64,000 bases of DNA, from assembly GCA_038250735.1 (NCBI GenBank), contig JBBSCC010000001.1, positions 3,229 through 67,228 on the forward strand, in the 5' to 3' direction. The position numbers and the translations under genes were made by a program. Each line of letters begins with the position of its first letter. The first letter of the stretch is position 1. Below, in pieces: positions 8,590-12,619 of this stretch. The stretch is from Sphingomonadales bacterium (GTDB taxonomy: Bacteria > Pseudomonadota > Alphaproteobacteria > Sphingomonadales > Sphingomonadaceae). A model generated the notes under the pieces. It was not told where the DNA came from. It ran no database searches and worked only from the letters and a program-made list of their open reading frames with translations.

Positions 8590-9084
8590 ATGAAGACGAT
8601 TTATGCTGTTGCAGCGCTTGCCACGCTTTCGCTCGCCGGTACGGCCCAGGCTGCTCCCGTTACCGCCGAAGCTGGCGCCGGTGCCAAGATCATTGCACCA
8701 CTTCAGATTGATAACAGCACGCCGTTGTATTTCGGCACCATTGCCCAGTCGTTGACGCAGAGTGACACGGTTTTCGTCTCGCCATCCGGCGACAAGAAGT
8801 GCGGCGCGGCGCTGACCTGCCTGACGTCCGACCACACCGCCGCTGCCTTCGAAGTCAAGGGTGAAGCAGACGCCGTCTACACCATCTCGCTTCCCGGCGG
8901 CATCGAGATCACCAATGAAAAGGGCGACGGCATGAAGGTGTTCAACTTTACAGGTTCGCAGGACGCCGGCCGTCTCGTCAAGGGCGAAGACCGCTTCACC
9001 GTCGGCGGCATGCTCGACGTTGGCGTCCGCCAGGCAGCCGGCAAGTACACCGGCCGTTTCGTGGTCGCTGTCGAATATCAGTAA
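8590..9084 (+). CDS. Secreted DUF4402-like putative pilus/fimbrial subunit
   Basis: Start chosen at ATG 8590 (AAGGAA 7 nt upstream). Signal peptide MKTIYAVAALATLSLAGTAQA|AP. The mature beta-rich ~140 aa ends in ...GKYTGRFVVAVEYQ, as remembered for DUF4402. It is the first gene of an operon with a PapD-like chaperone. Confidence 0.8.
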   Translation: MKTIYAVAALATLSLAGTAQAAPVTAEAGAGAKIIAPLQIDNSTPLYFGTIAQSLTQSDTVFVSPSGDKKCGAALTCLTSDHTAAAFEVKGEADAVYTISLPGGIEITNEKGDGMKVFNFTGSQDAGRLVKGEDRFTVGGMLDVGVRQAAGKYTGRFVVAVEYQ

Positions 9085-9102
9085 TCGACTCTGGCAGGGG
9101 AA

Positions 9103-9136
9103 GGAGCCCGGATCGCACCCTCGCGACCCGGGCTCC
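9103..9136 (+). terminator. Intra-operon stem-loop (GGAGCCCGG ... CCGGGCTCC, 9-bp stem, 16-nt loop) between subunit and chaperone genes
   Basis: Inverted repeat read directly, 19 nt after the subunit stop. There is no clear U-tract, so it is more likely an attenuator or mRNA-stability element than a strong terminator. Confidence 0.35.
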
Positions 9137-9180
9137 AACCCTGTCCACCCCCAATCCCTTTTTGAAGGAAAGCCCCTGCC

Positions 9181-10011
9181 ATGCGCTTTTCACCTCAACG
9201 CCTTTTGCGCCTTGCACCGGTGCTTGCTGCGATCGTCATCCCCGCGCTGCCCAGCCCTGCTGCTGCCCAATTGATGATCGCTCCGACCCGCGTTGTCCTT
9301 GCCGGGACAGAACGCAGCACTGAACTGATCCTCGTCAACAAGGGCGATGAACAGACCGCGTTCCGCATCGATGTCGAAAACCGCCGAATGCGCTCGGATG
9401 GCGCGCTCGAAACCGTCACCGAAACGCGGTCTGGCGAGCTTTTCGCTGCGGACATGATCCGCTTCTCGCCGCGCCGTGTGGTCCTCGATCCGGGCGCCCG
9501 CCAGTCGCTTCGCGTTGCAGTAACGGTGCCGGCCGGTCTCGCGCCCGGGGAATATCGCAGCCATTTGCGGCTGATGTCGGCGCCGACCAGCGCGGGCGCC
9601 GCCACGCCGACCGCCAGCGATGCCAATGACGGCGCTCTGTCGATCCAGTTGATCGCCGTGCGGTCGATCACCATTCCAGTCATCGTCCGTGTCGGAGCAC
9701 TCAATGCCAGTGCCAGCGTCGATTCCGCCGCCCTGACAAACAAGCCCGACAATTTGATGGTCATCAAGCTGACCCGCGCGGGTACGCGATCGACCTATGG
9801 TGATCTGCGGTTGACCATCGCTGGTGAGGCGAACCCGGTCTACAATGTGCGCGGCATCGCCATCTATACACCCAACACCGATCGCGACGTGCTCTTGCCG
9901 CTACCAGCCGACATCAAGGCCAAGCTGGTCGGCCGCGACGTCCGAATCGATTATGTCTCGTCTGATCCCCAGGCACCCGGCCTGATCGCGTCGCGGCGCG
10001 TCCAGCTCTGA
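9181..10011 (+). CDS. Periplasmic pilus chaperone (PapD-like fold)
   Basis: Signal peptide. LMIAPTRVVLAGTERSTELILVNKGDEQTAFRIDV follows the PapD_N pattern (P.R.v....s..l.v.N.g). Two Ig-like halves are apparent. Confidence 0.8.
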   Translation: MRFSPQRLLRLAPVLAAIVIPALPSPAAAQLMIAPTRVVLAGTERSTELILVNKGDEQTAFRIDVENRRMRSDGALETVTETRSGELFAADMIRFSPRRVVLDPGARQSLRVAVTVPAGLAPGEYRSHLRLMSAPTSAGAATPTASDANDGALSIQLIAVRSITIPVIVRVGALNASASVDSAALTNKPDNLMVIKLTRAGTRSTYGDLRLTIAGEANPVYNVRGIAIYTPNTDRDVLLPLPADIKAKLVGRDVRIDYVSSDPQAPGLIASRRVQL

Positions 10012-10042
10012 CCCGCTGATCACGGGCGGTCGGTGCCGGATC

Positions 10043-12619
10043 ATGCGAATAGCCCTGTTGATGCTGGCAACGCTGTTGCCGGCCTCCCCGGCGCATGCCC
10101 AGTCGCGCGATAACGACAAGGATTTCGACAGCCTTTTCGGTACCGAACGGGCGCGCTTCACCGGCACCCGCACGCCGCGCGCAGGGCGTGACGATCTTAA
10201 CATCGTCGCGCTCTACCTGGGCCGCTTTCAGCTGCTTGAATCGCTGCCTGCCTATACGACCGCAGCGGGGCTCTGCCTGCCGCTAGGTCCTGTGCTCGAC
10301 GCGCTGGAAATCGGGCGCAGCGAAGCCAATGGCCAGCAGGTCATCGACCTTCACGCACCGGACCGCCGGGTGCCGGTCGACCCTGCCGAGCTGATGCCAT
10401 CACCCGAAGGCCCCTGCATGGCGCTGGCGGCCTTTGCCAAGTTTTTGCCGGTGACGCTTCGGTACGACGAAGCCAATCTGCGTATCACCATTGACAGCAC
10501 CGAGCCCTTGCCCGTTGCGGCGCGGCTCGATCGTGTCGAACGCCGCCGCCAAGCGCTCGCGGGCGAAGGGCCGGTTCGGCCACACTTTCCGCGCATCGCC
10601 AATCCCTGGGGGGCAATTGGTTGGCCGACGTTGGACATGGCGCTGGGTTTGGGTTCGGGCAGCAGCGGCAATATTCTGGCCGGCCAAGTCGAACTGGTCG
10701 CCGATCTTGTCGGCATGACGGCGCGTGCGCGTTTCGCAGCGGGCAGCGGCGGCCCACCAAGTGTCCGCCTTGCGCTGGGCCGTGAAAGCGAGGCCAGCGA
10801 CCAACTTGGCCCGCTTCATGCTCGCAGCTTTGCCATCGGCGATATCAATGTTCCAGCGCAGCCGCTGATCGGCGTCGCCAGCAGCGGCCGTGGCATGGTG
10901 ATCTCCAACCGGCCGCAATGGCGCGCGGACCTTTTCGACCAGATCGAACTGCGCGGGCCCTTGCCGCGCGGCTGGGACGCCGAACTGCAACGTGATGACC
11001 GGCTGGTGGCGGTGTGCGACAAGCCCGACGCGGCCGGCGATTATGTGTTTGCCGATGTGCCGCTGCGCGCCGGCGCCAACAATTATCTCGTTCGGCTGTT
11101 CGGTCCGCACGGCGAGATCGAGGAACACGCCTTCACCCGCTTTGTCGGCAACGAACTCAACCCGGAAAACGAATTCGGCTATTCGGCCGGCATCGTCGAC
11201 AGCGGCGTGCCGATACTCGGGCCGCCCGCGCCGACCCAGAAGGCGATGGGTCGTTTTGCTTTTGCGACCCTGGAACATGGCATTGCGGGCGGTGTCTCGA
11301 TGCGGGTGGATATCCGCGCGACGCTGACTGGTGGCAGTCCGGCGATGGCCGCTGGCGTTCACGCGGCGATGTTCGGCGGGTTCGGCAGCTTGCTGGTGGC
11401 GGGCGATGGCGGCGGCCGGCCGGCGGTGGCGCTGCGCGGCGTCCGGCAATGGGGCAGCACCAACGTCAAGTTTGAAGCCACCGATTATGGCGATATCACC
11501 CGGCCACTCAGGCCCGGCGCGGTCAACAGCCTGGCCCGTGAATTCGGCTTCTCCGCAGCGACGCGGGTCGGCCTGGGTCGGCGCAGCCTGCCCCTGCTGG
11601 TCGGCTGGCGGCGCACGATCGAACGCAGCGGCAGCGCCGTCGACCGGCTTGATTCCAGTTTGGCGCTGGCGATGGGCGAATGGCGTTTCAGCCAGGGCGC
11701 CAGCGTCGAACGGCGCGATGCAGCTGCGCCGACATTGCTGGGAAACATCGCCGTCGCGCGCGGCATCGGCGGCTGGCGGCTGCGCGGCGGGGTCGATTAT
11801 GGCGTCGCCGACGGGTTCAGGCTTCATCAGATCGGTGCGTCGGCGGCGCGCGCGACGGCACGCGGTAGCATGGGGATCGATTTTGGCTGGGATGCCCGGC
11901 GCGGCACCGCCACCGTTGCCGCCACTGCCGCAAGGCATTTCGGCACGATCTCGGTTGGCGCCGGCGCTGGCGTCGGACCGAATGGCTGGCGCCTCGGGCT
12001 CAATCTGTCGGCCGCCCTGTTCCACGATTCCCGAGCCGGATATCGACTAGCCACCGCTGGGATTGGCCGTACCGGCGTGCTGCAACCGCATGTTTTCGAA
12101 GACATTGATGGCAACGGCGCGCAAGGGGCTGGCGAGCCCGATATTGGTGGCGCCAGCTTTATTGTGGATAGCAGCATTCGCCGAGAAACGACGGCTACGG
12201 ATGGCAAGGCGCGCATTGTCGGTCTGATTCCCGGCAGCCGCGTCGATATGGAAGTGCAGCTCGCATCGCTGCCCGACCTGCGCCTGCGGCCGGTCCATCC
12301 CGGCGTCAGTGCGGTGGTTCGCCCCGGCCAGGTTCTTGACGTGCCCGTGCCGCTTCGCCAGACCGGCGAGATCGAGGCGCTCGTCGAAACGATTAATGGC
12401 GATTTACATCGGCCTTTGCCCGGGATCGAGGTCGCTCTCGTCGATACAAGCGGCAAGCGTGTAGCTGTTACCCGCAGCGATTTTGAGGGTCTCGCCTATT
12501 TCGATGGCGTGCCGCAGGGAAATTGGCGACTGGAAGCGGCGCATGCAGCGCCCGTGAAGGCAACGCTTCGCCAAGATGCGCTTTTGGTGACGGGGCTCCG
12601 GCTGCTGATCGGGCAATAA
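10043..12619 (+). CDS. Large outer-membrane usher-like protein (divergent; family not assignable by eye)
   Basis: 858 aa with signal peptide MRIALLMLATLLPASPAHA. Gly/Ala/Arg-rich beta-strand periodicity. A plug-like segment GDYVFADVPLRAGANNYLVRLFGPHGEIEEH. C-terminal Ig/CarboxypepD_reg-like segment IEVALVDTSGKRVAVTRSDFEGLAYFDGVPQGNWRL. Its position after subunit and chaperone genes fits an usher. Confidence 0.65.
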   Translation: MRIALLMLATLLPASPAHAQSRDNDKDFDSLFGTERARFTGTRTPRAGRDDLNIVALYLGRFQLLESLPAYTTAAGLCLPLGPVLDALEIGRSEANGQQVIDLHAPDRRVPVDPAELMPSPEGPCMALAAFAKFLPVTLRYDEANLRITIDSTEPLPVAARLDRVERRRQALAGEGPVRPHFPRIANPWGAIGWPTLDMALGLGSGSSGNILAGQVELVADLVGMTARARFAAGSGGPPSVRLALGRESEASDQLGPLHARSFAIGDINVPAQPLIGVASSGRGMVISNRPQWRADLFDQIELRGPLPRGWDAELQRDDRLVAVCDKPDAAGDYVFADVPLRAGANNYLVRLFGPHGEIEEHAFTRFVGNELNPENEFGYSAGIVDSGVPILGPPAPTQKAMGRFAFATLEHGIAGGVSMRVDIRATLTGGSPAMAAGVHAAMFGGFGSLLVAGDGGGRPAVALRGVRQWGSTNVKFEATDYGDITRPLRPGAVNSLAREFGFSAATRVGLGRRSLPLLVGWRRTIERSGSAVDRLDSSLALAMGEWRFSQGASVERRDAAAPTLLGNIAVARGIGGWRLRGGVDYGVADGFRLHQIGASAARATARGSMGIDFGWDARRGTATVAATAARHFGTISVGAGAGVGPNGWRLGLNLSAALFHDSRAGYRLATAGIGRTGVLQPHVFEDIDGNGAQGAGEPDIGGASFIVDSSIRRETTATDGKARIVGLIPGSRVDMEVQLASLPDLRLRPVHPGVSAVVRPGQVLDVPVPLRQTGEIEALVETINGDLHRPLPGIEVALVDTSGKRVAVTRSDFEGLAYFDGVPQGNWRLEAAHAAPVKATLRQDALLVTGLRLLIGQ

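Follow-up and report, generated by a model that had tools for sequence, protein, structure and literature searches.

The stretch of DNA considered here, 64,000 nucleotides from a Sphingomonadales bacterium and referred to as the window, carries at positions 8590 to 12619 genes for a DUF4402 protein, a PapD-like protein and a protein of 858 aa. The question raised by this locus is whether the three proteins make up a complete machinery for the assembly of a surface fibre. The first-pass annotation, made from the sequence alone, had proposed a minimal three-gene pilus system in which the largest protein was either a highly divergent usher or merely analogous to one. We consider it highly probable that the genes form a complete single-subunit chaperone-usher fibre-assembly operon of a deep-branching, undescribed family, with probable regulatory elements alongside. 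The pathway is of a known kind, that of the chaperone-usher systems; what is new is a divergent, uncharacterised and largely unannotated family.

Three co-oriented genes for secreted proteins indeed occupy this segment, and the coordinates, the sizes and the peptide quoted in the first-pass annotation all proved correct. The genes are real, as judged from many conserved homologues of each and from a gene order that is kept across related loci. The subunit reading frame has alternative starts at 8572 and 8590 and ends at 9084, which corresponds to 170 or 164 aa, and an AAGGAA ribosome-binding site lies 7 bases 5' of the ATG at 8590. The subunit and chaperone genes are separated by 96 bases, the chaperone and usher genes by 31 bases. 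Sec-type signal peptides were read from the sequence for all three products, with cleavage at AGTAQA/APVT (subunit), PSPAAA/QLMIAPTR (chaperone) and ASPAHA/QSRD (usher). A profile scan of all open reading frames (ORFs) of the window yielded one subunit, one chaperone and one usher gene; the label of a minimal three-gene system is therefore correct. Neither a two-domain tip adhesin nor minor subunits were found at the window locus. The earlier statement that a minor subunit is missing holds for this locus and fails for the family, some members of which have as many as three or four DUF4402 genes. We compared the locus with 88 related loci (80 from species-representative genomes, 5 from metagenome contigs and 3 from plasmids). 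Wherever the flanking sequence was long enough, one to three DUF4402 genes are followed by the chaperone and then the usher gene, and a few loci have one further DUF4402 gene 3' of the usher gene. The single-subunit form present in the window is the commonest, and the order of subunit, chaperone and usher spans Alpha-, Beta- and Gammaproteobacteria.

Table 1 Features of the pilus locus in the window and domains of the predicted usher (AF2, AlphaFold2 model)
Feature	Position	Strand	Description or basis
LuxR/GerE-type response regulator	5183..5800	-	Pfam Response_reg and GerE
Hybrid sensor histidine kinase	5797..8247	-	Pfam GAF, two PAS regions, HisKA, HATPase_c, receiver domain
Subunit gene	8590..9084	+	DUF4402 pilin-like protein; precursor 164 aa, mature about 141 aa
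Intercistronic structured RNA	9085..9180	+	Between subunit and chaperone genes; RNA fold
Chaperone gene	9181..10011	+	Putative periplasmic PapD-like chaperone, 276 aa
Usher gene	10043..12619	+	Predicted outer-membrane usher, 858 aa
Usher, disordered stretch after signal peptide	residues 11-49		AF2
Usher, N-terminal mixed alpha/beta domain	residues ~50-152		AF2
Usher, linker helix	residues 157-172		AF2
Usher, 24-strand barrel	residues 196-662		AF2
Usher, barrel strands 1-6	residues 196-288		AF2
Usher, plug (compact six-strand insert between strands 6 and 7)	residues 299-368		AF2
Usher, further 18 long barrel strands	residues 378-662		AF2
Usher, C-terminal domain 1 (beta-sandwich)	residues 678-760		AF2
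Usher, C-terminal domain 2 (beta-sandwich)	residues 764-856		AF2

Predicted fold and identity of the 858-aa protein

No usher model of Pfam or NCBIfam matches the 858-aa protein at E ≤ 1, and its Pfam matches are confined to SdrD_B (residues 683-732) and CarboxypepD_reg (residues 789-835). In the precomputed Pfam annotation of 62 homologues, Usher (PF00577), PapC_N (PF13954) and PapC_C (PF13953) do not occur once. When PDB sequences were searched, phmmer with the single protein returned no usher, and hmmsearch with a profile of 58 homologues found SdrD-type domains only and again no usher. For the three proteins of the operon, NCBIfam gave no meaningful match and individual phmmer searches of PDB sequences nothing relevant. 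The failure of the family-profile hmmsearches of PDB sequences indicates that methods at the HMMER level are blind to the relationship. The first-pass annotation had spoken of only faint usher features in the sequence.

An AlphaFold2 model was built on the alignment of homologues (mean predicted local distance difference test, pLDDT, 80.1; predicted template modelling score, pTM, 0.58), and its topology was read with DSSP. It exhibits the architecture of an usher, with an N-terminal domain, a plugged 24-strand barrel and two C-terminal domains. The plug of known ushers is located between barrel strands 6 and 7, as seen in the PapC and FimD structures. The first-pass annotation had suggested modelling the protein as a check on its nature, and it clearly comes out as a plugged barrel of 24 strands by both AlphaFold2 and Foldseek. 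The single C-terminal Ig-like domain assumed earlier has to be replaced by two beta-sandwich domains. In the Foldseek comparison with the PDB, the top 18 entries were FimD or PapC without exception (E 7e-30 to 5e-13). The best of these, FimD 3rfz_B (E 7e-30) and PapC 7lhg_C (E 1.7e-24), match over the full length. The full-length usher entries share 12-14% identity with the protein along its whole length, and ranks 14 to 18 are structures of the pore domain only. The best beta-barrel that is not an usher, MOMP of C. jejuni, appears at rank 25 (E 6e-6), and the ranks between the ushers and MOMP are matches to the C-terminal sandwich domains.

Profile-profile comparison by hhalign points in the same direction. 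Alignment of a family profile with single FimC, FimD or FimA was underpowered (probability 0.6-2%), and small E. coli family profiles were needed. With a profile of six E. coli K-12 ushers taken from annotated loci, the usher family aligned over the last barrel strands and both C-terminal domains (E 1e-4, probability 58%), and with relaxed thresholds the alignment was colinear with the E. coli ushers over 725 columns. In the relaxed alignment, the nearly invariant C78 and C125 of the N-terminal domain stand opposite the cysteines of the FimD N-terminal domain, and the conserved DLFDQIELRG stands opposite DIFDGINFRG of FimD. The plug-like segment GDYVFADVPLRAGANNYLVRLFGPHGEIEEH is found at residues 332-362. 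The segment that the first-pass annotation had singled out as plug-like, GDYVFADVPLRAGANNYLVRLFGPHGEIEE, lies inside the predicted plug and is aligned with the FimD plug segment GPFTINDIYAAGNSGDLQVTIKEADGSTQI, so that this proposal is upheld.

In principle, the protein could also be a different outer-membrane barrel, similar to LptD, a porin or a TonB receptor, that is fused to CNA-B-like adhesin domains and neighbours the other two genes by coincidence. SdrD_B and CarboxypepD_reg, the sole significant family matches, would fit such a fusion, and annotators name the protein accordingly. Against this, Foldseek places ushers some 24 orders of magnitude ahead of the best other barrel (7e-30 versus 6e-6) and does so over the full length, the modelled plug is inserted where ushers have it and the barrel has their 24 strands, the C-terminal domains align with the C-terminal domains of classical ushers, and the gene lies strictly beside chaperone and subunit genes wherever the 88 loci have enough flanking sequence. 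AlphaFold2 topology, Foldseek, hhalign and synteny effectively refute an LptD, porin or TonB-receptor barrel, and we give this explanation practically no chance. As judged from its modelled fold and from the profile alignments, the 858-aa protein is a true, extremely divergent usher and more than an analogue of one. The idea of an usher-analogous system is unnecessary because the protein is homologous to ushers.

The DUF4402 subunit, its putative chaperone and the proposed assembly mechanism

The subunit belongs to DUF4402 (Pfam E 1.8e-28), with the domain starting at residue 38. SCPU (PF05229) and Fimbrial (PF00419) do not match it at E ≤ 1, and they matched none of ten diverse subunit-position proteins of related loci even at E ≤ 10, eight of which match DUF4402. 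A search of PDB sequences with the subunit profile (hmmsearch) returned no pilin, and hhalign of the same profile with FimA gave a probability of 2%, with only the C-terminal motif common to both. The AlphaFold2 model of the subunit (pLDDT 82.5) is disordered at residues 1-31, that is, in the signal peptide and the start of the mature protein. When Foldseek compared it with the PDB, each of the 21 highest-ranking entries was a chaperone-usher pilin; classical, alternative and archaic systems are represented, with Caf1, HdaB, CfaB, CsuA/B and the Csu pilus, and the pilin domain of PapG. Caf1 (3dos_E) ranks first, with E 4e-3, a template modelling (TM) score of about 0.4 and 18% identity. The CryoSeek TLP-1 pond fibrils, which also use donor-strand exchange and are related to a Flavobacteriales protein (PMC11494351), were considered as relatives; they are absent among the subunit's PDB neighbours and were treated as unrelated.

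More telling than the overall fold are the two ends of the protein. The subunit terminates with G-x12-Y-Q, and Gly at -14 and the penultimate Tyr are present in all 96 non-identical DUF4402 subunits of the related loci. Among 16 classical pilins from annotated loci of E. coli K-12, Gly -14 occurs in 16 and Tyr -2 in 15, whereas EcpA, a member of the alternative family, has neither. This C-terminal motif serves in recognition by the chaperone, as established for PapD and its subunits. The Pfam domain does not include the mature N-terminus, APVTAEAGAGAKIIAP, the core of which, AGAxI[IV]xPL, is conserved even across subunit paralogue classes. This is the pattern expected of a donor strand. The segment AGAGAKIIAP is a candidate for this strand. 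C71 and C77 are invariant in 30 aligned close homologues, and about four-fifths of the 96 subunits retain them. The first-pass annotation had named the lack of an incomplete Ig fold as a finding that would speak against a pilus subunit; pilin neighbours, the disordered N-terminal segment and the Gly/Tyr motif leave the subunit proposal standing, though only weakly confirmed.

It is conceivable that the 858-aa pore exports the DUF4402 protein as a monomer or as a non-fibrous coat, without any donor-strand polymerisation. Such a function is compatible with the weak similarity of the subunit to pilins, with a short, Ala- and Gly-rich N-terminal extension of about 14 residues, and with the fact that Caf1, the top structural match, makes a capsule-like mass and not rigid pili. 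Caf1 is itself a donor-strand polymer, however, all subunit classes show strong conservation of the N-terminal segment despite its position outside the globular domain, and the motif of the C-terminal strand is invariant. We know of no characterised system of this three-part layout that leaves its subunits unpolymerised. We therefore hold export of an unpolymerised subunit to be very improbable and continue with fibre assembly as the preferred reading.

The first-pass annotation had also described a two-domain periplasmic chaperone with the PapD N-domain pattern. In the 276-aa protein PapD_N is detected below threshold (E 0.0055; the curated cut-off is 23 bits), and weak PapD_N matches occur in 29 of 30 chaperone homologues, besides matches to other PapD-fold families. 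There are 748 detectable homologues, some of which are named 'fimbrial biogenesis chaperone' or 'P pilus assembly chaperone PapD'. A profile of 30 homologues found no match among PDB sequences. When seven E. coli fimbrial chaperones were combined into a profile, hhalign aligned the N-terminal domain with it, including the T-R motif that is invariant in both families (probability 85%, E 6e-6); the second domain was aligned under relaxed settings only, in a colinear alignment of 225 columns that extends to the C-termini. After cleavage the mature protein begins with QLMIAPTR, which places an Arg at mature position 8, as in PapD. The F1-G1 region is somewhat longer in the alignment than that of FimC. 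Taken together, these comparisons support homology of the N-terminal domain to PapD-like chaperones.

Homology with the Fim, Pap and Caf systems suggests the following course of assembly. The DUF4402 subunit would be exported via the Sec pathway and captured in the periplasm by the PapD-like chaperone. Its C-terminal strand (G-x12-Y-Q) would dock in the chaperone cleft, with the terminal carboxylate held by the Arg8 equivalent, and a chaperone strand would complete the incomplete Ig-like fold. The chaperone-subunit complex would then bind to the N-terminal domain of the 858-aa usher, and the plug would leave the 24-strand barrel. Subunits would be joined head to tail by donor-strand exchange via the N-terminal AGAGAKIIAP, and the homopolymer would be threaded to the cell surface while the two C-terminal usher domains hold the last chaperone-subunit complex. 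Polymerisation and surface display, just like the regulatory links and the biological role discussed below, are what we infer from these parallels. With one subunit, no two-domain adhesin, Caf1 as the nearest structure and a longer F1-G1 region, the most likely product is a thin and flexible fibre or coat, homopolymeric and of the same type as Caf1, Saf or the Csu shaft. A Sphingomonas-like bacterium that is free-living would likely use it for surface attachment or biofilm formation.

A conserved intercistronic RNA and a neighbouring two-component system

The segment between the subunit and chaperone genes is predicted to fold into a stable RNA structure (9082-9182, -48.4 kcal/mol, z -6.5 compared with shuffled sequences). 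An outer stem is formed by GGCAGGGG (9094-9101), ten bases 3' of the subunit stop codon, and CCCCUGCC (9172-9179), one base 5' of the chaperone AUG. It encloses an inner GC-rich hairpin, GGAGCCCGG...CCGGGCUCC (9104-9136). Structure at this place is conserved: in 73% of 79 related loci, the 110 bases 3' of the subunit gene have z < -2. In an alignment of 20 loci, the sequence of the inner hairpin varies and its pairing is kept through double changes, while both 8-mers are almost invariant. The exact box pair GGCAGGGG/CCCCUGCC occurs in 27 of 78 distinct loci, all in the closer clade. Rfam yielded no family for the intercistronic RNA, only chance matches to microRNA-like hairpins. A simple terminator scan missed the hairpin because it lacks a run of T. 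In the Erythrobacter/Porphyrobacter group, a further hairpin, AGACC...GGUCU, is located around the CCCCUGCC box, a hint that the RNA may pair in alternative ways. By analogy to the pap and fim operons, and to the small RNA (sRNA) annotated directly after fimA, we infer that the structure may protect or end a short, abundant subunit transcript and may limit translation of the chaperone. In this way it would probably make the subunit far more abundant than chaperone and usher.

The genes for a hybrid sensor histidine kinase and a LuxR/GerE-type response regulator are oriented divergently from the pilus operon in the window, and the 3' end of the kinase gene overlaps the start of the regulator gene by 4 bases (5797-5800). 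A homologous pair of kinase and LuxR-type regulator genes adjoins the cassette in 43 of the 88 related loci, in one of two arrangements: either divergent and upstream as in the window, or with the kinase gene before and the regulator gene after the operon. A parallel is offered by the annotation of E. coli, where FimZ, a gene for a LuxR-type regulator, adjoins the sfm operon. The LuxR-type protein is a probable regulator of the operon, the expression of which is probably switched by the adjacent GAF-PAS hybrid kinase together with this regulator.

Distribution of the family and its place among chaperone-usher systems

A genome scan found the cassette in at least 594 species-level genomes. In a profile search of 1.84 billion representative proteins, the usher family comprised 3,588 clusters (50% identity) at E ≤ 1e-30. 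Among the matches listed at the top, the usher relatives are almost all full length; weaker matches to the usher profile are likely matches to the C-terminal domains only. Carriers belong to the Sphingomonadales, the Hyphomonadaceae and other Caulobacterales, the Kiloniellaceae, Polaromonas (Betaproteobacteria) and to Pseudoalteromonas and other Gammaproteobacteria. Cassette copies reside on plasmids of Sphingopyxis (pMC4), Novosphingobium and Polaromonas. A gene for an IS6-family transposase (DDE_Tnp_IS240) is present in the window at 14821-15537 (-), 2.2 kb downstream of the operon, and an IS6 transposase gene (9166-9858) is also found near the cassette on the Polaromonas plasmid pE5SP1. The plasmid copies and the nearby IS6 transposases suggest that the cassette is horizontally mobile. 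In public databases the relatives of the 858-aa protein are named carboxypeptidase-regulatory-like, SdrD-B-like, MSCRAMM or hypothetical proteins and never usher. A literature search produced no mention of 'DUF4402' or 'PF14352', and targeted searches no description of such a system. The earlier proposal of an uncharacterised branch holds in view of the lack of an usher profile match, the non-usher public names and the absence of DUF4402 from the literature searched.

About a third of the top-listed usher relatives (P0340, P0365, P0407 and about 50 others) are 1,000-1,470 aa long. Many of them have Pro/Ala-rich N-terminal extensions of 250-590 aa, which represent either periplasmic linkers or over-extended ORF calls in GC-rich genomes. 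Fused chaperones were considered and rejected, as the extensions match neither the chaperone nor the subunit profile and are Pro/Ala-rich and of low complexity. P0408 and P0421 have extra C-terminal CarboxypepD_reg-like repeats. Two usher relatives are named 'SPOR domain-containing protein' by NCBI, which suggests that some ushers are tethered to peptidoglycan.

Among the nearest known systems are Fim (FimA/FimC/FimD) and Pap (PapA/PapD/PapC) of E. coli, with which the window locus shares the three-part logic and the subunit-chaperone-usher order. The usher is predicted to have its domains in the same order, with the N-terminal domain followed by a 24-strand barrel, which is interrupted by the plug after strand 6, and by both C-terminal domains. 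The common features extend to individual motifs: classical ushers also have the paired cysteines in the N-terminal domain and D-[IL]-F-D-x-[IV]-x-[FL]-R-G before the plug, classical chaperones the N-terminal T-R motif with Arg8, and classical pilins the C-terminal Gly(-14)...Tyr(-2). Structured RNA follows the major subunit gene in both, and in E. coli the sRNA FimR2 is annotated after fimA. On the other hand, identity of the window usher with FimD and PapC does not exceed 12-14%, no usher hidden Markov model (HMM) matches it, the subunit falls into DUF4402 and not into Fimbrial, and the locus lacks the two-domain tip adhesin and the minor subunits of Fim and Pap. Furthermore, a hybrid kinase and a LuxR-type regulator are linked to the operon here, and the hosts are free-living Sphingomonadales, Caulobacterales and similar bacteria, whereas the E. 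coli systems are enteric.

Caf1, the F1 antigen of Yersinia pestis, and other single-subunit systems with FGL chaperones (Saf, Afa/Dr) have the same minimal set of genes and a dedicated regulator. The subunit model matches Caf1 better than any other structure, yet weakly (E 4e-3, TM 0.4, 18% identity), and the longer F1-G1 region of the window chaperone is also reminiscent of FGL-type systems. Of the Caf1 proteins, the usher Caf1A is a member of the standard Usher family and the chaperone Caf1M of the standard PapD family, while the window usher and chaperone score below the thresholds of the Usher and PapD models. Caf1R is a regulator of the AraC type; in the window a two-component system is found in its stead.

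The archaic systems Csu of Acinetobacter baumannii and CupE of Pseudomonas aeruginosa resemble the present one in their non-enteric spread and in their occurrence in environmental biofilms (PMC9452303, PMC10104325, PMC4654587). Archaic pili are thin and built from small subunits, and the same is expected here. Csu is controlled by BfmRS and CupE by PprAB, both of which are two-component systems, and control of this kind is also what we propose for the window operon. It might be argued that the operon is an ordinary member of a defined clade, most plausibly of the archaic sigma clade (Csu/CupE/SCPU), that automated annotation has missed. In favour of this, all three parts have chaperone-usher folds or motifs, the Foldseek matches of the subunit include CsuA/B and the Csu pilus, and the system resembles archaic ones in being frequent among environmental bacteria and in its link to a two-component system. 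However, archaic subunits carry the SCPU domain, whereas neither SCPU nor Fimbrial matched the DUF4402 subunits tested even at the relaxed cut-off, and the C-terminal Gly(-14)/Tyr(-2) is a motif of classical pilins. Archaic operons usually encode several subunits and a two-domain tip adhesin such as CsuE, whereas the window locus encodes one subunit. Archaic ushers are recognised by the standard Usher model, whereas the window usher is not; it is set apart from them by domain models and not by direct sequence comparison. To our knowledge, the Usher and PapC models detect the ushers of all six named clades, sigma included, and no member of the present family carries Usher, PapC_N or PapC_C. Likewise, no usher, chaperone or pilin was found when PDB sequences were searched with the family profiles. 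Membership in a known clade hence appears unlikely to us, albeit the least unlikely of the alternatives considered.

The deep-branching family therefore remains the preferred reading, and a number of points weigh against it. At the level of sequence, support for the usher is modest when taken alone (hhalign probability 42-58%). The pTM of the usher model is only 0.58, and its plug was placed from strand order and not from coordinates. The structural matches of the subunit are weak, and the chaperone was assigned by sequence comparison. The equivalent of Lys112 is ambiguous in this chaperone: spacing of conserved residues indicates Arg161, located five residues before the invariant Pro166 just as Lys112 precedes Pro117, while the alignment indicates Pro166. 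A promoter scan of the operon found no sigma-70-like promoter. Kinase and regulator are connected with the operon by synteny only, and a regulatory role of the RNA is suggested by no more than its position and conservation. As a whole, the system is known here from genes, conservation, predicted folds and common motifs alone.

Going one step further, the family may constitute a seventh, deep-branching clade besides alpha, beta, gamma, kappa, pi and sigma, with a homopolymeric fibre whose expression is set by the kinase/LuxR pair and by an RNA that occludes the start site. It would have kept the C-terminal motif of classical pilins while its other sequence features moved beyond HMM detection. 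We rate this joint proposal at slightly better than even. If true, it would show which features of the pathway are indispensable: domain order, plug position, cysteines, barrel motif, Arg8 and Gly(-14)/Tyr(-2) are all kept at 12-14% identity and would represent a minimal conserved core. Pfam family DUF4402 would be assigned a concrete function, and thousands of proteins now called carboxypeptidase-regulatory-like, SdrD-B-like, MSCRAMM or hypothetical would be re-labelled as fimbrial ushers. Censuses of chaperone-usher pili that employ the Usher profile miss the family entirely; surface fibres are therefore probably under-counted in Sphingomonadales, Caulobacterales and their relatives from fresh water, the sea and soil, in which attachment and biofilm formation matter for ecology and bioremediation. 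A single-subunit operon with a putative two-component switch and a conserved RNA could also provide a simple experimental model.

Some related and neighbouring genes deserve mention. A more distant version of the cassette is encoded on plasmid pPBSW1 of Pseudoalteromonas sp. Bsw20308 (3111-7682). Here, a 169-aa protein without a DUF4402 match in Pfam occupies the subunit position; next come a homologue of the chaperone and a 1,062-aa homologue of the usher, the latter annotated as 'SdrD B-like domain-containing protein'. The lack of DUF4402 in the subunit-position protein means that the subunit family may be wider than DUF4402. On Polaromonas plasmid pE5SP1, a gene for a 135-aa hypothetical protein without a Pfam match (3048-3455) lies between two DUF4402 genes, and its product could be a further subunit type or an adaptor. 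Upstream of the pilus locus, the window encodes a DUF6456 protein (1946-2506, -), an HTH_3/HTH_31 regulator (2547-3131, +) and a protein with a B12-binding domain (3802-4773, +), with no evident tie to the operon. Downstream, a 257-aa protein with a signal peptide and no Pfam match at E ≤ 0.001 is encoded at 13846-14619 (-), between a methyltransferase gene (13052-13834) and the IS6 element.

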